A DNA stretch of 32,000 nt from Anaerobacillus isosaccharinicus (GTDB lineage: Bacteria > Bacillota > Bacilli > Bacillales > Anaerobacillaceae), in NCBI RefSeq assembly GCF_001866075.4, contig NZ_CP063356.2:826164-858163 (forward strand), given 5' to 3'. The position numbers were made by a program, and so were the translations under genes. Position 1 is the first letter of the stretch. The number at the start of each line of letters is the position of its first letter. The notes below the pieces were generated by a model. That model had not been told where the DNA came from. It saw nothing but the letters and a program-made list of their open reading frames with translations, and searched no databases. Below, one piece after another: positions 2,338 through 32,000 of the stretch.

Positions 2338-5127
2338 GTGGTAAATGGCTATTATTCAATTGTACTACATGCACACATACCTTTTGTAAGGCACCGAGAA
2401 AAAGAGAGGCTTGAAGAGCGTTGGTTGTTTGAAGCAATCGCTGAAACATATATTCCTCTATTATGGAATTTAGAAGAACAAGAAATTAAAAGTCCCGCTA
2501 TAACCATTTCTTTTTCAACACCTTTAATGGAAATGCTTGCTGACCCTCTTATGCAGAGAAGGTTTTTACATAACATTGAAAATATTCAGTCCCTGCTAAA
2601 CAAAGAAGTAAGAAGAGCAGAAACTGTTGTTGAAGAAGCGGATTTAGTAGACTTTTATATGAAACGGATTGCAAAAATTAAGAATACATTTTTAAAATAT
2701 GAACAAAACCTTCTAAAAGGATTTAAAAAGTTTGTGGATGAAGGAAAGCTAGTTTGTATATGTAGCTCTGCTACACATGCCTTTTTACCTTATTTACAAA
2801 CAAAAGAAGGGGTAAGAGCTCAAATTGTTCACGGTATCAGAACGTTTACAAAACATTTTGGAATGAAACCTAAAGGATTTTGGCTACCAGAGTGTGGATT
2901 CTCTCCTGGTATCGATCGCATTTTGTTTGAAGAAGGAATTCGCTATTCATTCGTTGACGAGCATGCCTTACTGTATGCAGACCCAACTCCTTCTAATGGG
3001 ACTGGAGCTCCTATATATTCCCCCCATGGGATTATGCTATTTCCACGTAACTCAAAATTGTCTAATCAAGTTTGGAGTTCAGTTAATGGTTACCCAGGTG
3101 ACTTTGATTATCGTGAATTTTACCGTGATATTGCCTATGACCGTGATTGGGAGTATATAAAGCCATACATGCATTCAAAAGGACATCGATTTGATTCGGG
3201 TCTTAAATATCAGCGGGTCACTGGCAATACAGAGGAAAAGGATTATTATTGTCGTGAAAATGCTTTATTGAAGACGAAAGAACATAGTCATCATTTCCTT
3301 AAATCTATTAAAGAACAACTAGCTGCTAATGAAGAGCAGTGTTTCCCTCCTTACTTGATTGTAACCCCATTTGATGCTGAACTATTTGGACATTGGTGGT
3401 TTGAGGGGCCAGATTGGCTAAATCAGTTGATAACAGATGGTAGTAACGAAGTAAATTTTATTACTCCTGAAGCTTTTTTAGAGCGGCATTATCAAGATTT
3501 AGAAACTGCACATGTGTCTTTTAACACTTGGGGAAGAAATGGGTTTGGTGAGGTTTGGTTAAATGAGAAAAATAGTTGGATTTATCCACAGTTACATCGT
3601 ATCGAAAAAGATTTAATTCATCTTGTTACGGAGTATAAAAAACAAGGAACTCAGGTTGAGCGTTGCTTAAAGCAAATGGTACGGGAATGGATGTTAGCAA
3701 CGAGTAGTGATTGGCCTTTCATACTTGATAGTAACAGTGCTACTCAATATGCAAATAGTCGTCTTAAGGAGCATATAAACCGCTATGACCAATTAAGAGA
3801 TTTCCTTGTGAACGAAAAATTAAATCACGAAATCTTAACGGAGTTTGAAGCAGAGTATCCATTTTTAAATGAGATCGTGCTAGATATACTTACTTCAAAC
3901 CATGATGATTATGTTTTGAGGGAAATAAAGGCCAAACAGGTAAAAAAACAGAGAAAGACAATCCTAATGTTAGCTTGGGAATATCCGCCAATGGTGGTAG
4001 GCGGTCTATCAAGGCATGTGTTTGATTTATCGAGAGCACTTGTGAAAGATGGTTGTGAGATTCACGTCATTACTACTGCAGTTTTAGGGCATCCAGATTA
4101 TGAAATAATGAATGGCGTTCATGTTCATCGTGTGAGTAGTTTACAGCCAAATGCAGATGAGTTTTATCACTGGGTTGGGATTCTAAATCTTAGTTTTATA
4201 GATTGTGCACTTGAGCTAGCAAAAGGAATTCATTTTGACCTAATCCATGCACATGACTGGCTTGTTTGTGTAGCAGCAAAATCATTAAAAGAGCAGTTGA
4301 GTTTGCCAATTGTTGCTACTATTCATGCTACAGAGCATGGCAGAAACAATGGGATTTACACAGAGTTACAGCAAAAAATCTCACAAAAAGAATGGGAATT
4401 AACCTTTGAGGCAAATAAAGTCATTGTTTGCAGTCAGTATATGAAAGAAGAAGTAATGAGAGTTTTCCAGTTGCCTTTGGAGAAGATTGAGGTTATTCCC
4501 AATGGTGTAGACGTTGAGATGATTACAGGAGTTGAAGAAAGTTGGAAACGAACATATGGTAAAGAAAGCGATTTTTTCATTTTTTCCGTTGGGAGAATCG
4601 TAAAAGAAAAAGGCTTTCAAACCATTATAGATGCCGCTCCAACTATTGTTAGCCAGTATCCAAATGTTAAATTCATCATCGCAGGAAAAGGGCCGCTTCT
4701 AGACGATTACCGTAATCAAGTAGTTCAAAAAGGCTTAAAAAATTGTGTTTATTTCATCGGCTTCATCGATGATAAGCTAAGAAATCAAATGTTTCATGGG
4801 TGTGACATATGTTTATTTCCTAGTTACTATGAACCATTTGGCATCGTTGCTCTAGAAGGAATGATTGCTGGTAAGCCAACCATTGTCTCTGATACGGGTG
4901 GTTTAGGGGAGATTATAAGTCATGAAAAAACGGGTTTAACCATTTATCCTAGTGACGTTCAAAGCTTAGTAAATCAAATTGCTAATTGTATCGATAATGA
5001 AGATCTAGCAAAGGAAATAGCTAAAAATGGAAAGATGCTCGCTGAAACAAAATATAGTTGGGAAGCGATTTCCAAAGAAACAATTTTAGTTTATGAAGCG
5101 AGCCTGGCTTTAATGGAAGTTAACTGA
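2338..5127 (+). CDS. Fusion protein: GH57/DUF1957 1,4-alpha-glucan branching-enzyme-like domain (aa 1 to ~530) plus GT4 retaining glycosyltransferase domain (aa ~541-929)
   Basis: GTG start with GGGGG RBS. GH57 hallmarks are YYSIVLHAHIPFVRH, GFWLPECGF (Glu185, codon 2890-2892) and PFDAELFGHWWFEG (Asp346, codon 3373-3375). GT4 hallmarks are ILMLAWEYPPMVVGGLSRHV and EPFGIVALE (EX7E). Confidence 0.8.
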   Translation: MVNGYYSIVLHAHIPFVRHREKERLEERWLFEAIAETYIPLLWNLEEQEIKSPAITISFSTPLMEMLADPLMQRRFLHNIENIQSLLNKEVRRAETVVEEADLVDFYMKRIAKIKNTFLKYEQNLLKGFKKFVDEGKLVCICSSATHAFLPYLQTKEGVRAQIVHGIRTFTKHFGMKPKGFWLPECGFSPGIDRILFEEGIRYSFVDEHALLYADPTPSNGTGAPIYSPHGIMLFPRNSKLSNQVWSSVNGYPGDFDYREFYRDIAYDRDWEYIKPYMHSKGHRFDSGLKYQRVTGNTEEKDYYCRENALLKTKEHSHHFLKSIKEQLAANEEQCFPPYLIVTPFDAELFGHWWFEGPDWLNQLITDGSNEVNFITPEAFLERHYQDLETAHVSFNTWGRNGFGEVWLNEKNSWIYPQLHRIEKDLIHLVTEYKKQGTQVERCLKQMVREWMLATSSDWPFILDSNSATQYANSRLKEHINRYDQLRDFLVNEKLNHEILTEFEAEYPFLNEIVLDILTSNHDDYVLREIKAKQVKKQRKTILMLAWEYPPMVVGGLSRHVFDLSRALVKDGCEIHVITTAVLGHPDYEIMNGVHVHRVSSLQPNADEFYHWVGILNLSFIDCALELAKGIHFDLIHAHDWLVCVAAKSLKEQLSLPIVATIHATEHGRNNGIYTELQQKISQKEWELTFEANKVIVCSQYMKEEVMRVFQLPLEKIEVIPNGVDVEMITGVEESWKRTYGKESDFFIFSVGRIVKEKGFQTIIDAAPTIVSQYPNVKFIIAGKGPLLDDYRNQVVQKGLKNCVYFIGFIDDKLRNQMFHGCDICLFPSYYEPFGIVALEGMIAGKPTIVSDTGGLGEIISHEKTGLTIYPSDVQSLVNQIANCIDNEDLAKEIAKNGKMLAETKYSWEAISKETILVYEASLALMEVN

Positions 5128-5294: not shown

Positions 5295-7736
5295 ATGAAA
5301 GCTGTTATTATGGCAGGTGGAAAAGGAACACGCCTTCGTCCTTTAACTTGTAACATTCCAAAACCAATGGTTCCACTTGTTCATAAACCGGTAATGGAGT
5401 ATTCAATCGAATTATTAAAAAAGTATGGAATTACTGAGATAGCAGTCACCTTGCAATATTTACCTGATGTAATTAAGGACTACTTTGGTGATGGTAGCCA
5501 ATTTGGAGTTAAATTGCATTATTTTGTGGAGAAATTGCCGTTAGGTACTGCTGGAAGTATAAAAAATGCACAAAAATTTTTAGATGAACGTTTTGTGGTT
5601 ATTAGTGGCGATGGTTTAACAGATTTCAATCTTTCAAAAGGAATCCAGTTCCATCTTGAAAAAAATGCACTTGCAACTATTTTCATGAAACAAGTTGAAA
5701 CCCCACTTGATTATGGTGTGATTTTGACGAATGAAAATAATGAAGTTGTTAGGTTTATAGAAAAACCAAATTGGAATGAGGTATTTAGTGATACCGTTAA
5801 TACAGGAATTTATGTGTTAGAGCCTGAAATTTTCACTTTTTTAGAGGAAGGCGTACCGACTGATTTTAGTAAAGATACGTTCCCATTGTTAATGAAAGAA
5901 AAACAGGCGATATTTGGTTTTAAAGCAGATGGTTATTGGTCCGATGTTGGTAATCTCTACTCTTATCGAGAAACTCAGTTTGATATGCTAAAGAAGAAAG
6001 TTCAGGTTTCACTACTTGGTAATGAAACTAATGAAGGCATTTGGATTGGGAAAAATGTCCACATTGAAGATGATGTAACTTTAAATGGGCCTATTTCAAT
6101 AGGTGATGGTACAGTCATTCGCTCAGGATCGATTTTAGATGGGCAATGCATCATAGGTAAGCATTCTATCCTTTCAACAAATTGCACGTTAAAAAAGTCG
6201 ATATTATGGAATGATATTTACGTTGGAGATAGTAGTGAATTAAGAGGTACAACCATTTGTAAAGGAACAAAATTAGAAAATTCTGCTTCGCTCTATGAAG
6301 CTTCTGTCATAGGTGAGCAATGTACAATTGCTTCCAATGCCATCATTAAACCTGAAGTAAAAGTATGGCCGAATAAAACAATTGAAGAATCAGCTATTGT
6401 TCATACGTCTTTAATATGGGGGAAAAAGATTACAAGATCCCTTTTTAACGGGAGAGGGGTATCGGGTTTAGCCAATGTGGAAATTACACCTGATTTCTTC
6501 GCAAGGCTGGCGTCCGCATATGGGGCTGTATTGCCACAAGGAGGCAAAATTGTCTTAGGCTCTGATAGTTATTCGATTACGAATTTAATGAAATCATCTT
6601 TTCAAACCGGGATATTGTCTGCAGGTATTAGCACGGTTGATATTGGTATAACAATACCCCCAATCGTTCGTTTTACGGTGGAAAGAGAACCTGTCATTGG
6701 CGGGGTATATTTCCGTTTTGTAAATCGTAATGGTGAAATGCAAATTTCTGCTGAGTTTTATGATGGTAAAGGCTATCCCATCTCTGCAGAACTTGAAAGA
6801 AAAATTGAAAATGCTTTTTGGCAGGAGGATTATCGTCGCGCCTCTTTTGACCAAATTGGTTTTAGCGCATCGGTAAATAATGTTGAAGATAGCTATATAA
6901 ACAGTTTAATTAGTTTGATTTCGATAAAACAAATTAAAAATGCAAATTTAAAAGTTATTATTGGCTTTGAGCACTGTCATCATTTCTACTTCGTACCTAA
7001 ATTGCTTGAAAAATTAAATTGTGAGATCTACACAGTACCAAATCACAAAGCCCCAATCGAATTATCCAAATATGTCCAAGGAGTTGGAGGGGATTTAGGA
7101 ATTTTAATTGGGGAAACAGGAGAGTTCTTAAAGGTGATTACCGAAGAAGGGGAAATAGTAGCAGATGAAACGATGTTAGCTCTTTATATTATGCTCCATT
7201 TTTATGAGAAAAAAGAGGGAATTATGGCAATACCACATCATGGCTCTAGTGAATTAGATATCTTAGCCAAAAGATTAGGTGGGAAAATTGTTCGAACAAA
7301 AGCTGATCCAAGATCAATTATGGAAAAAGAAGGAAGTGTGTTCACTTATTTATTTGATGCTCAGTACGCGTTTATTCACATTGTCGAAATGATGACCAAA
7401 CAAAATATAAAGTTATCACAACTTATTAAGATGTTGCCAAGTATTCATTTATTAAGTGAGTCCGTTTATTGTCCTAAAACTGCTAAAGGGTTAGTGATGA
7501 GAATTCTTATGCAAGAAAATAGTCAGTCCAAGATTGAGTTATTAGATGGAATAAAAGTTCACCATCCTGATGGTGGCTGGACATTGATTTTACCTGACCG
7601 TGAAAAGCCAGTGTTTACTGTCTATTCACAGGCCAAAGATTTAAACATAGCTAGACAACAGTCGTCAAATTACGTCAAGAAAATTCTAAATATTCAAAAG
7701 TATCAAGATTTAGAAACGGTAGGTGATAATAAATGA
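5295..7736 (+). CDS. Sugar-1-phosphate nucleotidyltransferase (N-terminal, plus hexapeptide-repeat region) fused to a degenerate phosphohexomutase (PGM/PMM)-like C-terminal region
   Basis: The N-terminus is [18 protein letters not shown]...PKPMVPL (GxGxRL NTP-transferase signature). Residues ~250-360 show an I/V/L-G-x hexapeptide periodicity. The C-terminal 430 aa align by eye to alpha-D-phosphohexomutases, but TASHNP is RFVNRN (6714-6731) and DGDGDR is GETGEF (7110-7127). Confidence 0.75.
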
Positions 7737-24733: not shown

Positions 24734-24807
24734 TATTGATTGCTCAGGTTTTGAAGTGTTAATTTATCAAATCTAAGTAAATGCTACATTTTTAATGCCT
24801 AACTTAA

Positions 24808-24958
24808 TAAAGACTAGGGGTGCCAATCCGTTGGCTGAGAAAAAGGTAAAACTTTTACCCTTGAACCTGATCTGGGTTACACCAGCGTAGGAAAGTCGTC
24901 GATCAAATGCAACTATTAGTCGTAATCCGTCTTTCTTTACTGGATTACGACTTTTTTT
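24808..24958 (+). promoter_or_regulatory. TPP (THI-box) riboswitch with a terminator expression platform
   Basis: The aptamer GACTAGGGGTGCC...GGCTGAGA...ACCCTTGAACCTGATCTGGGTTACACCAGCGTAGGAAAGTC (about 24810-24899) matches the THI-box consensus. It is followed by an AGTCGTAATCC / GGATTACGACT hairpin plus T7 (24918-24958). The P1 3' strand AGTCGT can alternatively pair with ACGACT (antiterminator logic). Confidence 0.9.
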
Positions 24959-29211: not shown

Positions 29212-29688
29212 TTATGGATAAAATGTTACAATAATCTTATAAGCATCAGCAATTCCCTCAATTAATTCTTGATGATAACGCTCTACAAAATGTAACGTCT
29301 TGTCTGGTCCGGTATCAGAGGCAATTAGATGTTCATCCATTTGCTCTAATGCTCTTTGTATGTCTTTTTCATTATATCCTGAAGTCGTAAAAGGGATTAC
29401 TAATTCTTCATATAAATAATGTTTTTTTTCTTTTGAGGTAAACCCAAAATCGATAAAAGTATTCTTAGGATCAGGATTTTCTAGCAGATAAAGGGTGAAT
29501 CCTGCTTCAAAGACATTGTTTTCTTTTAACAGATTTTCCAGCTGTTGTTCATCACCACTATTATTTACAATAATACCGAATTGATAATAGTCTAGATGAT
29601 GTTCGTTAATAAAATGTTGAATATCCCTATAGTCAGGAAGAATTTCTGACGTTTCATTTACTAGCTCTAGCGCAATGTTTTTTTTCAT
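29212..29688 (-). CDS. Acidic cytoplasmic hypothetical protein (~158 aa)
   Basis: Clear ORF. The ATG at 29688 has GGGAGGG just upstream (short spacing), and the alternative TTG at 29700 has no RBS. No family recognised. Confidence 0.55.
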   Translation of the reverse strand: MKKNIALELVNETSEILPDYRDIQHFINEHHLDYYQFGIIVNNSGDEQQLENLLKENNVFEAGFTLYLLENPDPKNTFIDFGFTSKEKKHYLYEELVIPFTTSGYNEKDIQRALEQMDEHLIASDTGPDKTLHFVERYHQELIEGIADAYKIIVTFYP

Positions 29689-29849
29689 ATGCCCTCCCAA
29701 TATTGATAATTTTATGAATGTTTATTAAATCAATAATCGTGCATTTTTTTACTAGCTACAGCATCCTAGTATCTTTCAAACAATATTATGAAATTCATTA
29801 ATTTAAGTGTAAAATAAAAGACAACAAATATGCAAAGGAGACGATTTAG

Positions 29850-30488
29850 ATGGAGTGGAAACAAATACCGTTAGGGCCTTTACAAACTAACGCTTATGTT
29901 TTATATAATGAGAATAAAGAGGCTGTAATTTTTGATCCTGGTGGTGAGGGGGACAAATTAAACAAATGGCTTAAATCCGAAGGGTTATCACCAATCGCTA
30001 TTTTACTTACCCATGCCCATTTTGATCATATTGGTGCTGTTGATGAAGTACGTGATCATTGGGAAATTCCAGTCTATCTACATAAGAAGGAAAAAGAATG
30101 GTTAGCTGATCCGAAAAAAAATGGCTCCGCATTATTTATGGGGGTAAATGCTATAAAGGTAAAAAGTGCTGATTTTCTAATTAAAGAAGAAGGAAAACTT
30201 GAGATTGGTTCTTTTATTTTTGACGTGTTAGAAACACCCGGACATTCTCCAGGTAGCATTTCTTACTACTTTCAAAAGCTAGGGATAGTTTTCTCTGGAG
30301 ATGCTTTGTTTGCTGGTGGAATTGGGAGAACTGACTTACCAGGTGGAAGTCATGAAGTGTTAATGAATAGTATTAATCAAAAATTAATGGAATTACCAGA
30401 GAATACAATCGTTGCAAGTGGCCATGGTCCACTTACTAGAGTTGGTATCGAGATGGATTCCAATCCGTTTTTATCAGGTCTTGCTTAA
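29850..30488 (+). CDS. yqgX: MBL-fold metallo-hydrolase (glyoxalase II-like; YqgX-like)
   Basis: AAGGAG RBS. THAHFDHIG (HxHxDH), TPGHSPGS, GDALF, and ASGHGP motifs. 212 aa, as for B. subtilis YqgX. Confidence 0.8.
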   Translation: MEWKQIPLGPLQTNAYVLYNENKEAVIFDPGGEGDKLNKWLKSEGLSPIAILLTHAHFDHIGAVDEVRDHWEIPVYLHKKEKEWLADPKKNGSALFMGVNAIKVKSADFLIKEEGKLEIGSFIFDVLETPGHSPGSISYYFQKLGIVFSGDALFAGGIGRTDLPGGSHEVLMNSINQKLMELPENTIVASGHGPLTRVGIEMDSNPFLSGLA

Positions 30489-30542
30489 TTTTAATAAAAA
30501 AGGAAAATGGTGGAACACTATGAAAAACGAGGAGGTTTTAGT

Positions 30543-30758
30543 TTGAGTAGTGTTTCTATCTTTCCAATGAATTTATTCCAAGTGCTATTTGGGCTCTCTA
30601 TGAATGGGTGGATTTTAATCATTATCATGTTAAGTTTATCCGGAGCAGCTTTTTTTATCTATTACGGCGCTAAAAAAAGTGGTCAATTTGAAGATGTTGA
30701 AGGCATTAAGTATCGAATGCTATTTGAAGAAGAAGAAGAGTGGGAGCTTAACGATTAA
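30543..30758 (+). CDS. Small membrane protein with a CcoS/FixS-like motif
   Basis: The TTG at 30543 (GAGGAGG 7 nt upstream) is preferred over the ATG at 30507, which lacks an adequately spaced RBS. The segment WILIIIMLSLSGAAFFIYYGAKKSGQFEDVEGIKYRMLFEEEE resembles CcoS (…W/Y-A-x-K/R-SGQFDD…R-I/M-L…acidic tail). Confidence 0.45.
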   Translation: MSSVSIFPMNLFQVLFGLSMNGWILIIIMLSLSGAAFFIYYGAKKSGQFEDVEGIKYRMLFEEEEEWELND

Positions 30759-30870
30759 AAAAAAGGAAGCTGACTCTACGGGAGCCAGCTTCAAATGGGG
30801 AGTTAATCTTAGTTATCATAAATGAACTTTTGAGGGGAGGGGGAACTCCCGAAGATCATTGCTAACTTAC
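30757..30870 (-). ncRNA. Predicted ~113-nt small RNA with C-rich tracts
   Basis: It is bounded by a perfect-consensus sigma-A promoter (next feature; TSS predicted at the G at ~30870) and a minus-strand intrinsic terminator: GAAGCUGGCUCCCGUAGAGUCAGCUUC (30792-30766) followed by U8 (30764-30757). The RNA contains CCCCCUCCCCUC and CUCCCC. Confidence 0.6.
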
Positions 30871-30876
30871 AAATTT

Positions 30877-30905
30877 ATTATATAATGATATTAACAACGT
30901 GTCAA
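30877..30905 (-). promoter_or_regulatory. Perfect-consensus sigma-A promoter (minus strand)
   Basis: The minus strand reads TTGACA (30905-30900), cgttgttaatatcatta (17 nt), then TATAAT (30882-30877). An A/T-rich UP-like tract (AAAAAATAATTAAAAAAATAATTAA) lies upstream. Confidence 0.7.
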
Positions 30906-30968
30906 CAGTGTTAATTATTTTTTTAATTATTTTTTAGCATTCTGCGCTTTTCTAATGGGGGAGATGAA

Positions 30969-32000
30969 TTGAAAGATATTGTAGTAGAAAAAATAAAGAA
31001 AACTGATAAAAAATTGATGACCTATGCAGACTATATGAATTATGTCCTTTATGATCCAGAGATTGGATATTATATGAAAGACAAAAAAAAGCTCGGGCGA
31101 GATGGAGACTTTTATACGAGTAGTGGTGTTCATGCAGTGTTTGGACGGGCATTTGCACATTTTTTTCTAGATGTTATTGAAAAAGAGGGATTACCAGCAA
31201 CTATTTGTGAGTTTGGTGGTGGTGATGGAAGATTTGCAAAAGCGGTTCTTGATGAGTGGGAACTTATTACACAAAATAAGCCGTTAGATTATACGATTAT
31301 CGAGACGAGCCCTTTTCATAGACAAGAGCAAAGTAAACTTTTAAGTGAGAACAATAGATTTAGACAATTTGCTAGTTTAGAAGACTTACAGAAAAATGAG
31401 ACAAATCAATTTGAAGGAATTATCTTTTCAAATGAATTACTCGATGCTTTTCCAGTCCATGTTGTAGAAAAATTTGAACAGAATATCTTAGAAGTATTTG
31501 TTTCTGTTGACGAAAAAGAAAATCTGATTGAACGAAAAGAAGTCTGTACGAATGAAAAGATTCTTAATTGGCTAGCCACATACGGTCCACCTTTAATCGA
31601 AGGGCAGCGAATAGAAGTTCCTATTTATATGAATTCCTGGATGAAGAGCATAAATTCTTTCCTTAAACGAGGTTTTTTAATAACAATCGATTATGGCTTT
31701 ACGAAAGAAGACTGGGCGATGCCACAAAGGAAAGATGGTAGTCTTCGTGGATATTACAAGCATCAAATGATTAACAATCCGCTAGAAAATCCAACAGACA
31801 TGGATTTAACCACTCATATTCACTTAGATGCCTATGAAATGATAGCTAACGAGGTCGGCTTAAAAAAAGTTGTAGCAGAAAAACAAAATCGATTTTTAAT
31901 AATGATTGGAATGCTTAAATTTCTGCAAGAGAATTATGATCCAAATCCTTTTTCAAAAAAGAGTAAACTAAATCGAGCCATTAAAACTTTAATAATGGAT
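30969..32000 (+). CDS. Class I SAM-dependent methyltransferase, DUF185/COG1565 (NDUFAF7-like) family; 3' end beyond the window
   Basis: Absent from the ORF track because there is no stop in the window. TTG start with GGGGGAG RBS 5 nt upstream. The frame is open for 344 codons. Motifs: DFYTSSGVHAVFG, ICEFGGGDGRFA (SAM motif I), IFSNELLDAFPVH, and TIDYGF. Confidence 0.75.
   Translation, partial: MKDIVVEKIKKTDKKLMTYADYMNYVLYDPEIGYYMKDKKKLGRDGDFYTSSGVHAVFGRAFAHFFLDVIEKEGLPATICEFGGGDGRFAKAVLDEWELITQNKPLDYTIIETSPFHRQEQSKLLSENNRFRQFASLEDLQKNETNQFEGIIFSNELLDAFPVHVVEKFEQNILEVFVSVDEKENLIERKEVCTNEKILNWLATYGPPLIEGQRIEVPIYMNSWMKSINSFLKRGFLITIDYGFTKEDWAMPQRKDGSLRGYYKHQMINNPLENPTDMDLTTHIHLDAYEMIANEVGLKKVVAEKQNRFLIMIGMLKFLQENYDPNPFSKKSKLNRAIKTLIMD

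Follow-up and report, generated by a model that had tools for sequence, protein, structure and literature searches.

The question raised by the locus described here is whether a promoter of perfect consensus, facing an intrinsic terminator at the end of a convergent gene in Anaerobacillus isosaccharinicus, marks the gene of a small RNA (sRNA), and if so to what kind of sRNA it belongs and what might control it. The stretch analysed (hereafter the window) comprises 32 kb of the genome of this bacterium; a further contig (L202) was found to be 100% identical to the window and to extend past its end. Public sequencing runs in which this locus is assembled are SRR4933106/7 and SRR34955048/9. C-rich sRNAs directed against the Shine-Dalgarno (SD) sequence are the best understood riboregulators of Gram-positive bacteria. 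To our knowledge only few families of C-rich sRNAs are known, namely RsaE/RoxS, FsrA/IsrR, CsfG, LhrC and the Rsa RNAs, and RsaE has been described as the sole trans-acting sRNA besides 6S RNA common to Staphylococcus and Bacillus.

The 114-nt RNA predicted on the minus strand (Table 1) is very likely a real, strongly conserved and unannotated small regulatory RNA, a conclusion which draws on its sequence and on comparison with related genomes. For an in-silico prediction it is unusually well supported. It represents a new, uncatalogued family within the known kind of C-rich anti-SD sRNAs. The comparison made use of a sample of 80 syntenic Bacillaceae loci, one genome per species, obtained by a hydrolase-anchored scan, to which the window was added (81 sequences). 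The initial annotation, an earlier reading of the window from its letters, had proposed the sRNA; the apparent wider Bacillaceae family, the putative palindromic operator conserved at its promoter and the recurrence of the operator motif at the promoter of a SufR-like regulator gene lay beyond its view.

The predicted RNA and its distribution

The exact-consensus promoter which the initial annotation had placed on the minus strand stands as described, with both hexamers and the 17-nt spacer in place (12/12 consensus positions), and it is the one perfect TTGACA-N16-18-TATAAT arrangement in the 32-kb window, the chance expectation being 0.07. The A/T-rich tract likened to an UP element is likewise present, AAAAAATAATTAAAAAAATAATTAA preceding the -35 box. 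Transcription would start at G30870, 7 nt past the -10 box, and stop with the last position of the U8 tract. The terminator was found where it had been proposed, together with its U8 tract, the stem being of 11 bp rather than the 10 bp first given, which is a trivial correction. Read on the plus strand, the hairpin has A8 before it and CAAATGGGG after it with no T-tail, as had been noted, so that in A. isosaccharinicus it terminates the minus strand only. No conserved open reading frame (ORF) was found on the minus strand at this site.

Two C-rich tracts had also been pointed out and both are present, CCCCCUCCCCUC at 30843-30832 and CUCCCC at 30802-30797; the RNA of the window contains CUCCCCAUUUG as well. 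The predicted fold of the 114-nt RNA has an energy of -30.7 kcal/mol (z = -4.5 against shuffled sequences). Its plus-strand complement folds with z = -2.8 in the window and has a less defined ensemble, and the same was seen in two relatives. In the minimum free energy, centroid and consensus folds alike, both UUCCCC (apical loop) and CUCCCC (linker) are left unpaired, and their alignment columns are invariant. C-rich tracts are displayed at three places, namely the hairpin loop, the single-stranded linker and the loop or junction of the terminator.

Table 1. Positions in the window of the predicted sRNA, its parts and the adjoining genes.
Feature	Position	Strand	Remarks
-35 box TTGACA	30900..30905	-	Invariant in 22 aligned promoters from other genera
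-10 box TATAAT, 17-nt spacer	30877..30882	-	Promoter 12/12 consensus
Predicted small RNA, 114 nt	30757..30870	-	Promoter and terminator bounds, fold, covariance model R1 (92.2 bits), conservation
Intrinsic terminator hairpin	30766..30792	-	11 bp (6 G-C), 5-nt loop CCGUA, CUCCC at the stem-loop junction
U8 tract	30757..30764	-	Overlaps the FixS-like stop codon by 2 nt
5' stem-loop domain, RNA nt 4-60	30811..30867	-	Inner helix GGGAG (30850-30846) : CUCCC (30839-30835)
C-rich region 1, UUCCCCCUCCCCUC	30832..30845	-	UUCCCC is the apical loop; remainder partly masked by internal GGGAG
C-rich region 2, single-stranded linker seed GAUUAACUCCCC	30797..30808	-	Unpaired in every fold
Palindromic operator (putative), A/T-flanked, centred on the -35 box	30890..30915	.	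Window reads AATTAACACTGTTGACACGTTGTTAAT
Candidate methyltransferase promoter TTGCTA-16-TATAAT, 10/12	30859..30886	+	-10 shared with the sRNA -10; -35 inside the sRNA gene
MBL-fold hydrolase gene (yqgX-type)	29850-30488	+	
Convergent FixS/CcoS-like small membrane protein gene, 83 aa	30507..30758	+	Pfam PF03597, E = 1.4e-8
Divergent Methyltransf_28 (DUF185/NDUFAF7-like) gene	30969..32000, runs off the window end	+	Start codon TTG at 30969

The genes are ordered as in the window in two close relatives (L205 and L206), and in both of them the promoter and RNA, a segment of 154 nt, were found to be without a single substitution. Nucleotide identity to the window is 92.4–96.7% in the flanking genes of these relatives and 93–95% in the 58-nt spacer directly upstream of the promoter; at this local rate of divergence, 6–9 changes per relative would be expected in the segment. 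Their absence is strong evidence for purifying selection on exactly the segment which the initial annotation had delimited.

With nhmmer and blastn the RNA was also identified in Evansella (L049, L052), Salipaludibacillus (L035, L044) and Alkalihalobacterium (L002), again at this site and on this strand; it is 74–80% identical there and the anchoring protein 55–69% identical. In an alignment of six sequences (A2), the source of covariance model R1, the -35 and -10 boxes, A(A/U)AGUUCAUU and GAUU(A/U)ACUCCCC are invariant or nearly so, and CCCCCUCCCC, the core of C-rich region 1, is invariant throughout. The consensus structure is paired in 93.5% of cells. Eleven pairs have changed on both sides, a number reached by 0 of 500 shuffles, with structures slid by 1–3 columns giving 1–3 such pairs. 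Eight of the 11 pairs of the terminator helix are compensatory relative to the relatives, the stem having been nearly wholly rewritten with its pairing kept. The consensus fold consists of a 5' stem-loop (apical loop UUCCCC, with the next CUCCC paired with an internal GGGAG), the single-stranded CUCCCC linker and the terminator, the loop of which carries CCCC in the relatives; in the window CUCCC sits at the junction.

The C-rich or UCCC class of sRNAs is characterized by a 5' hairpin, a 3' intrinsic terminator and C-motifs that are left unpaired where conservation is highest (Geissmann et al., 2009; PMC2790875). The RNA of the window has this structure, with a 5' hairpin, a terminator and unpaired UCCC/CCCC in its most conserved regions, and the layout resembling RsaE/RoxS and FsrA that was suggested for it earlier is borne out.

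Beyond the six aligned sequences, the family appears in two forms. R1 gave 79–136 bits on the alkaliphile copies (Evansella, Salipaludibacillus and Alkalihalobacterium). Weaker matches, likewise at the syntenic position, came from L031 (32.7 bits, E = 3.6e-4), L003, L036, L024 and L013. A shorter form of ~80 nt, here termed canonical, reads UAGUAGCUUAAC..AUCCCCUCCCAUUA..GAAUAGAACAUCCCCCAGAAA followed by the terminator. A second model (R2) was derived from 11 canonical copies; its matches, 13 strong (67–94 bits) and 4 moderate, cover Anoxybacillus, Geobacillus, Neobacillus, Cytobacillus, Pseudoneobacillus, Fredinandcohnia, Niallia, Mesobacillus, Viridibacillus and several Bacillus spp. When partial copies and the alkaliphile form are counted, the element is present in ~26 of the 81 sequences from at least 15 genera, always beside the hydrolase gene. 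Both promoter hexamers and the distance between them are preserved in at least 15 genera, with the promoter always directed at the terminator. What connects the two forms are the weak R1 matches, the same synteny and orientation, the motifs AGUAG, CCCCUCCC and UCCCC-A, and a common promoter and operator. The RNA of the window follows the family plan (CCCCUCCC tract, second (A/U)UCCCC tract and terminator) and is probably the alkaliphile-clade variant of a broader Bacillaceae family.

The new family spans thermophiles (Geobacillus, Anoxybacillus) to alkaliphiles (Evansella, Salipaludibacillus, Anaerobacillus), and R1 and R2 could seed an Rfam family for its annotation. No recognisable sRNA was detected at the locus in the three sampled genomes of the B. 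subtilis group (L027, L048 and L058), which may explain why the family has been overlooked. A divergent copy was sought in the intergenic gap of Peribacillus (L063) and nothing recognisable was found there. A scan of metagenomes with the pattern CCCCCTCCCC-N4-8-AGTTCATT returned at least 120 matching stretches; R1 recognised 0 of the 80 listed ones, which are thus attributed to chance.

The promoter palindrome and the SufR-like regulator

The putative operator centred on the -35 box has, over the 22 aligned promoters, the consensus TTTnCACTAT-TGAC-ATAGTG(T/A)(T/A)AA, and in L018 the palindrome is perfect over 24 bp. A position weight matrix (PWM) was derived from 44 half-sites of the sRNA operators alone (consensus ATAGTGTTAAT). 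By this measure the left half-site of the window, ACAGTGTTAAT (30905-30915, plus-strand reading), is the best site in the 32 kb with 14.4 bits.

A regulator gene with a match to Pfam HTH_20 lies 1.5–2 kb from the sRNA in all 25 fetched sRNA loci and in the window organism (L202), and is present in 18 of the 55 loci which lack the sRNA. The COG2345 protein it encodes has the accession WP_071317054. The motifs NVARLHL, with the R-x-H recognition motif of the N-terminal DNA-binding domain, and KKTGKGGRPS, with a central GRP AT-hook, are invariant in 11 aligned homologues and in the protein of the window organism. The C-terminal arrangement NC-x12-C-x-M-H...C-x-Y is invariant as well, the spacing of the second and third Cys being ~34 residues compared with 28 in SufR of Mycobacterium tuberculosis (Mtb). 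Against TIGR02702 (SufR_cyano) E-values of 8e-11 (L035) and 1.5e-7 (window organism) were obtained over ~175 of 208 positions; as the scores of 31–42 bits are far under the equivalog cutoff of 178.8, the regulator appears to be a relative, not SufR itself. A PDB sequence search with the regulator returned only a generic winged helix-turn-helix (wHTH) match. The defining features of SufR-like factors of COG2345 are RRH within a wHTH, a GRP AT-hook and three Cys together with Glu/His/Asn/Asp/Cys, and these factors bind loose A/T-flanked palindromes (ACACT-N5-TGTGA in Mtb) and repress in the holo-[4Fe-4S] form; according to the same preprint, only SufR and ArnR have known targets within the COG2345 family (bioRxiv 10.64898/2025.12.26.696629).

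With the PWM, the 150 nt upstream of the regulator gene were ranked against the other segments of the same locus. They fell in the top 5% in 22 of 39 loci (~2 expected) and were the single best segment in many, including 9 of the 20 loci without the sRNA. Upstream of the regulator the unit takes the form of a tandem repeat, e.g. TATAGTGTAAAC-AGTGTAAAC, and the regulator's own upstream block reads TGTGAACATTTTCTAAAC-ATATAGTGTTAAC-ATTGTTAAC. When a second full palindrome was sought in the loci, including the vicinity of the regulator gene, matches of at least 11/12 lay at the sRNA promoters and at one further site, L029:2559. The presence of the same motif at the regulator's own promoter and at that of the sRNA is the pattern expected of an autoregulated factor that recruited the sRNA gene, and suggests that the sRNA may be under the control of an iron-sulfur (Fe-S) sensor. 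The half-sites resemble the NrdR box and CIRCE, from which the spacing differs by 2–3 bp; neither identity is claimed.

Some further features of these promoters were observed. Directly 5' of the tandem AGTGT(T/A)AAC units upstream of the regulator there is a conserved block, TTGTGAACATTTTCTAAAC, at ~5900-5960 in L012 and ~5990-6050 in L018, and also in L036, L031 and L033 (minus strand). It contains TTGTGAA-N4-TTCTAAA, which we take to resemble a Rex/Fnr-type half-site pair with two mismatches, and a second regulator may act on the promoter of the SufR-like gene. In Bacillus sp. JJ1533 and JJ1521 (L010 ~6166-6181 and the equivalent position of L008) the tandem units upstream of the regulator are replaced by a perfect palindrome with the opposite polarity, AAGTGATA-AA-TATCACTT; in both loci the sRNA match is partial, yet the sRNA-type promoter palindrome CACTGTGTCAATGGTG is present. 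Finally, ATAGTGTAAA is conserved ~45 nt 5' of the hydrolase start (~2948-2963, plus strand) in L010, L011, L018, L033, L034, L036, L037, L051, L059 and L068. Though it matches the regular expression for the operator half-site, it is probably the TATAGT -10 element of the hydrolase promoter; a role as a regulator site is conceivable.

Neighbouring genes, mode of action and alternative explanations

The order of genes in L202 is hydrolase, FixS-like gene, the sRNA, methyltransferase, DUF2626 (YqgY) and HTH_20 regulator. In the window and all of the ~25 other copies the sRNA gene lies directly 3' of the MBL-fold hydrolase gene and is convergent with it, and it is usually back-to-back with a Methyltransf_28 gene. 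In a few lineages a FixS/CcoS-like gene is wedged between the hydrolase gene and the sRNA (window 30507-30758, plus strand; L044:3658-3903; L205:4661-4909; L206:1718-1966). Apart from the same-species contigs L201-L204, homologues of it were detected among the fetched loci only in L044 and in the two close relatives, L205 and L206, which makes this gene a variable neighbour outside the RNA. FixS/CcoS is normally an accessory factor of the cbb3-oxidase or copper-ATPase. The protein of the window scores 27.6 bits against TIGR00847, slightly below the cutoff, and is annotated by NCBI in a shorter form of 71 aa. The overlap of the U-tract with its stop codon, reported in the initial annotation, is real.

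The methyltransferase is a protein of 377 aa in full length (L202), with a ribosome-binding site (RBS) GGGGGAG at 30957-30963. Its TTG start lies 64 nt beyond the sRNA -35 box, in agreement with the earlier statement that the sRNA promoter falls in the upstream region of this divergent gene. Protein accessions are consecutive from the FixS-like gene to the methyltransferase, leaving no space for a further protein-coding gene between them. The -10 box of the sRNA (ATTATATAAT) is self-complementary and hence also reads TATAAT on the plus strand. Since the candidate methyltransferase promoter overlaps that of the sRNA, transcription of the sRNA and of the methyltransferase could be mutually exclusive. 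Similar plus-strand candidates, T(T/A)GTTA-17-TATAAT, occur in several canonical loci, and back-to-back overlapping candidate promoters were also seen at the equivalent positions in L018, L025, L029 and L009. In canonical loci (e.g. L036:3657-3700 and L025:3671-3710) an A-run on one side and a T-run on the other allow the sRNA terminator also to stop the convergent hydrolase gene; the window and the alkaliphile clade have kept only the minus-strand U-tract.

Other elements of the surroundings were noted. An ORF of 162 aa at 29212-29700 on the minus strand of the window, divergent from and upstream of the hydrolase gene, has only a sub-threshold match to SRP54_N and is kept in close relatives (158–159 aa; no Pfam family). 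At 24806-24910 (plus strand) there is an ordinary thiamine pyrophosphate (TPP) riboswitch (RF00059, 69.2 bits, E = 8e-12), which precedes a cluster for thiamine biosynthesis (genes called as TMP-TENI, ThiS and Phos_pyr_kin in L201/L205) and has no connection with the sRNA. In Bacillus sp. JJ1521 the locus is flanked by two copies of the Bacillaceae-1 RNA (L008:2426-2489 and 5316-5382, minus strand; RF01690, 52–54 bits).

Taken as a whole, the reading favoured here, in which we have moderate confidence, is that of a sigma-A-driven, trans-acting C-rich sRNA which blocks SD regions and is probably gated by a SufR-like repressor. The strong sigma-A promoter would drive the 114-nt minus-strand non-coding RNA up to the intrinsic terminator. 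Its C-tracts would pair in trans with G-rich SD regions of target mRNAs, as in RsaE/RoxS, FsrA, LhrC and RNAIII, and by the same analogy this pairing would block the initiation of translation and expose the mRNA to RNases. A dimeric repressor bound to the A/T-flanked palindrome at the -35 box probably gates transcription; the strongest candidate for it is the putative Fe-S cluster regulator of the SufR-like (COG2345) type, whose gene lies ~1.9 kb away. The more specific scenario, in which this putative [4Fe-4S] factor autoregulates and represses the sRNA at the -35 box, so that loss of the cluster (iron/Fe-S limitation, O2 or NO) turns the sRNA on and mRNAs are silenced via their SD regions, is put forward tentatively.

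Several observations weigh against this reading or parts of it. The RNA is a prediction, and its C-rich region 1 is partly masked by the internal GGGAG helix. R2 did not detect the RNA of the window and R1 links the two subfamilies weakly, so that their homology is probable and not proven. In Anaerobacillus sp. L001 (a metagenome-assembled genome), the nearest other species, both flanking genes are kept and the sRNA is absent; the methyltransferase start follows 8 nt after the hydrolase stop (L001:3627-3635), with neither the sRNA nor the FixS-like gene between them. The conservation anticipated for promoter, C-tracts and terminator in relatives with the same flanking genes was thus found, with L001 as the exception: the RNA is gained or lost as a unit, is not universally retained and appears to be dispensable in some lineages. 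As an observation on the segment itself, ~480 nt comprising the FixS-like gene and the sRNA (cf. window 30488-30969) are present or absent as a block within one genus.

As regards the regulator, the right half-site of the window, ACGTTGTTAAT (30900-30890, minus-strand reading), is degenerate at 8.8 bits, the training range being 3.2–15.0. The co-occurrence of sRNA and regulator is confounded by common synteny and phylogeny, the regulator promoter scores weakly with the PWM in the window's own clade (0.65 in L002, 0.19 in L035 and 0.04 in L049), and a strict count of two-unit pairs by regular expression gave 12, a marginal result beside a mean of 5.4 and a maximum of 12; a clear signal came from the PWM ranking only. 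Searches for targets belong here as well. Duplex prediction against 24 translation initiation regions (TIRs) of the window was uninformative (mean energy -18.2 versus -17.0 +/- 0.7 for shuffled RNAs). Co-variation of the linker seed with the methyltransferase RBS (CCCCAUU/AAUGGGG, CCCCAAA/UUUGGGG and CCCCUU/AAGGGG) was considered and rejected, matched pairs giving -10.9 and mismatched ones -10.7 kcal/mol. Feedback pairing of the sRNA with the TIR of the regulator (GGGGAGUGAAU versus AUUAACUCCCC) likewise found no support, as this TIR came first in only 1 of 16 loci and its mean rank fraction was 0.36.

The alternative that survives best is a role mainly in cis, by which convergent transcription and the complementary RNA would interfere with plus-strand transcripts needed for expression of the methyltransferase. 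These transcripts would be read-through from the hydrolase/FixS-like genes, or methyltransferase mRNA from a promoter sharing the -10 region, and the C-tracts would be incidental or mirror a G-rich sequence in the methyltransferase mRNA. As the hairpin of the window has no plus-strand T-tail, hydrolase/FixS-like transcripts should run antisense through the entire sRNA. The methyltransferase gene follows 8–90 nt after the hydrolase gene in sRNA-less loci, in an operon-like manner. The sRNA and the methyltransferase gene co-occur in most loci, and in all members the methyltransferase start lies 25–65 nt beyond the sRNA -35 box, the candidate plus-strand promoters sharing the -10 region. However, L003, L078 and L079 carry the sRNA without an adjacent methyltransferase gene, and in canonical members read-through is not expected, the hairpin there being a bidirectional terminator. 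The strongest conservation, moreover, is found in the unpaired C-tracts and not in the region overlapping the putative 5' untranslated region of the methyltransferase, and an antisense role requires neither a conserved secondary structure nor exposed loops. A mainly cis role, which would be compatible with one in trans, is regarded as rather unlikely.

That the RNA is a diverged orthologue or paralogue of RsaE/RoxS or FsrA which the models fail to recognise is very unlikely, and this explanation has been largely refuted. It draws on the shared architecture, i.e. a C-rich loop on the 5' hairpin, a C-tract in single-stranded form and C's in the terminator loop (PMC4409812; PMC2790875), and on a weak alignment of the RsaE model to the canonical form around UCCC(A)UCCC (L013, 16.8 bits, E = 1.3), but the gathering score of that model is 79, and RsaE (RF01820) had no match at E <= 10 in the window between 30600 and 31100. 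The initial annotation had stated that identity with a known family could not be established, and this agrees with the Rfam covariance models: at the gathering threshold neither the window nor 20 loci had a match to the RNA in Rfam 15, and the permissive search (E <= 10) of the RNA of the window and L013 returned chance-level matches only (U12; rli22 at 16.7 bits; RsaE at 16.8 bits), of which rli22 on the window RNA and RsaE on L013 alone were related in theme. The hallmark of RoxS is a duplicated CCCCUUUGUU, which carries its C-rich regions CRR1 and CRR3 (PMC4409812), and CCCCUUUGUU is absent from all family members inspected.

The 5' and 3' ends of RoxS and FsrA were reconstructed from published T7 primers (PMC8216469, supplement; for FsrA CC2492/2493/2765/2783). 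Neither is related to the new RNA, in the case of FsrA beyond runs of CCCC, and permissive Rfam scans gave no match to FsrA. In B. subtilis RsaE/RoxS lies between yizD and yjbH, FsrA between ykuI and ykuJ and CsfG between ylbG and ylbH (PMC3574147), and not at yqgX as here. Identity with RoxS and FsrA was rejected on sequence, motif, location and operators. CsfG, a sigma-F/sigma-G transcript of ~136 nt that corresponds to the reverse complement of the ylbH-leader motif (PMC3574147), was rejected likewise, the new RNA having no ylbH Rfam match, other neighbours and a sigma-A consensus promoter. LhrC/Rli22 (CL00114) was discarded as well, since the rli22 score of 16.7 bits (E = 4.3) against a gathering score of 80 is at chance level. 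At up to 3 mismatches, no Fur box TGATAATNATTATCA was found at 30870-30950 (the nearest, at 30613-30627, is within the FixS-like gene) and no Rex box at the sRNA promoter. Furthermore, a genuine RsaE has been reported from Geobacillus (PMC2790875), and Geobacillus L060 carries the canonical form of the new family; with both RNAs in the same genus, the new family is not a drifted RsaE orthologue.

It is highly improbable that no functional RNA exists here and that a chance promoter merely stands beside the terminator of the convergent genes, or that the conserved element belongs to the plus strand of an operon mRNA. It is true that the hairpin adjoins the convergent gene at its 3' end, that canonical members have it in bidirectional form and that the plus-strand complement folds as well (z = -2.3 to -5.4). 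Against this, the promoter boxes and their spacing are kept across the genera in a constant direction towards the terminator, and the segment is 100% identical amid 3–8% local divergence. The window has retained the minus-strand U-tract and lacks the plus-strand T-tail, the minus-strand folds are the better defined, and a perfect promoter has the low chance expectation given above. A micro-protein of 16 codons from an internal AUG (AUG AUC UUC GGG AGU UCC CCC UCC CCU CAA AAG UUC AUU UAU GAU AAC UAA) is scarcely credible, for although the AUG at RNA nt 12 is kept in 5 of the 6 aligned sequences, no SD sequence precedes it, C-runs of differing length put L052, L044 and L049 out of frame after codon 9, the frame of L035 ends after 2 codons (AUG AAU UAG), and the canonical form has no such ORF.

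Relation to known systems

We know of no SufR-like (COG2345) member from the Firmicutes that has been characterised. If confirmed, the link to the regulator would provide the first Firmicute function for the SufR-like family and tie Fe-S/redox sensing to post-transcriptional control. If true, the sRNA would also be the first sRNA target assigned to any SufR-family regulator, and would form an Fe-S-responsive third arm of the C-rich sRNA network of Bacilli, beside Fur/FsrA and ResD-Rex/RoxS and absent from B. subtilis.

LhrC/Rli22 of Listeria are sRNAs of ~110 nt with several UCCC motifs which pair with SD regions, and in this they resemble the new RNA, from which they are set apart by the chance-level score and unrelated synteny. 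CsfG is likewise a C/U-rich sRNA, widespread in Bacillaceae, with C-tracts in loops and interhelical regions. It differs in being a ~136-nt transcript of sigma-F/sigma-G at ylbG-ylbH, whereas the new RNA has a consensus sigma-A promoter and a different locus.

The closest parallel in architecture is with RsaE/RoxS, an sRNA of ~100–115 nt with a C-rich loop on a 5' hairpin, single-stranded C-tracts and C's in the terminator loop, which has a sigma-A promoter with upstream regulator sites and acts in trans through pairing of its C-tracts with SD regions (PMC4409812; PMC2790875). The two share no sequence homology, the new RNA has no duplication of CCCCUUUGUU and lies beside yqgX rather than between yizD and yjbH, and in place of a ResD/Rex signature (the ResD site not having been specifically modelled) it has the CACTAT-N4-ATAGTG palindrome on the -35 box.

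In regulatory logic the new RNA may be compared with FsrA of B. subtilis and its analogues IsrR (S. aureus) and RyhB (E. coli), small RNAs whose promoters are occluded by a metal-cofactor-sensing repressor, FsrA being C-rich as well. If the link to the SufR-like regulator is right, the sequence of events would be the same, loss of the cofactor leading to expression of the sRNA and hence to repression of a set of mRNAs. FsrA, however, begins with GAUAGAGAGAAGCUACUCUCUGUUCCCCAACCCCUCUAUC and lies between ykuI and ykuJ, and the new RNA is without a Fur box, its candidate sensor being a COG2345 Fe-S protein and not Fur.

The known SufR and ArnR regulons of cyanobacteria and actinobacteria comprise the suf operon (SufR) and narKGHJI/hmp (ArnR) and include no sRNA, and the spacing of half-sites is N6 or N5 in these systems compared with N4/N8 here. 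The candidate regulator likewise has the wHTH, the GRP AT-hook and the motif of three Cys plus one ligand, and its putative operator is a loose palindrome of the ACACT type with A/T flanks which overlaps the promoter and whose motif is also found upstream of the regulator's own gene.

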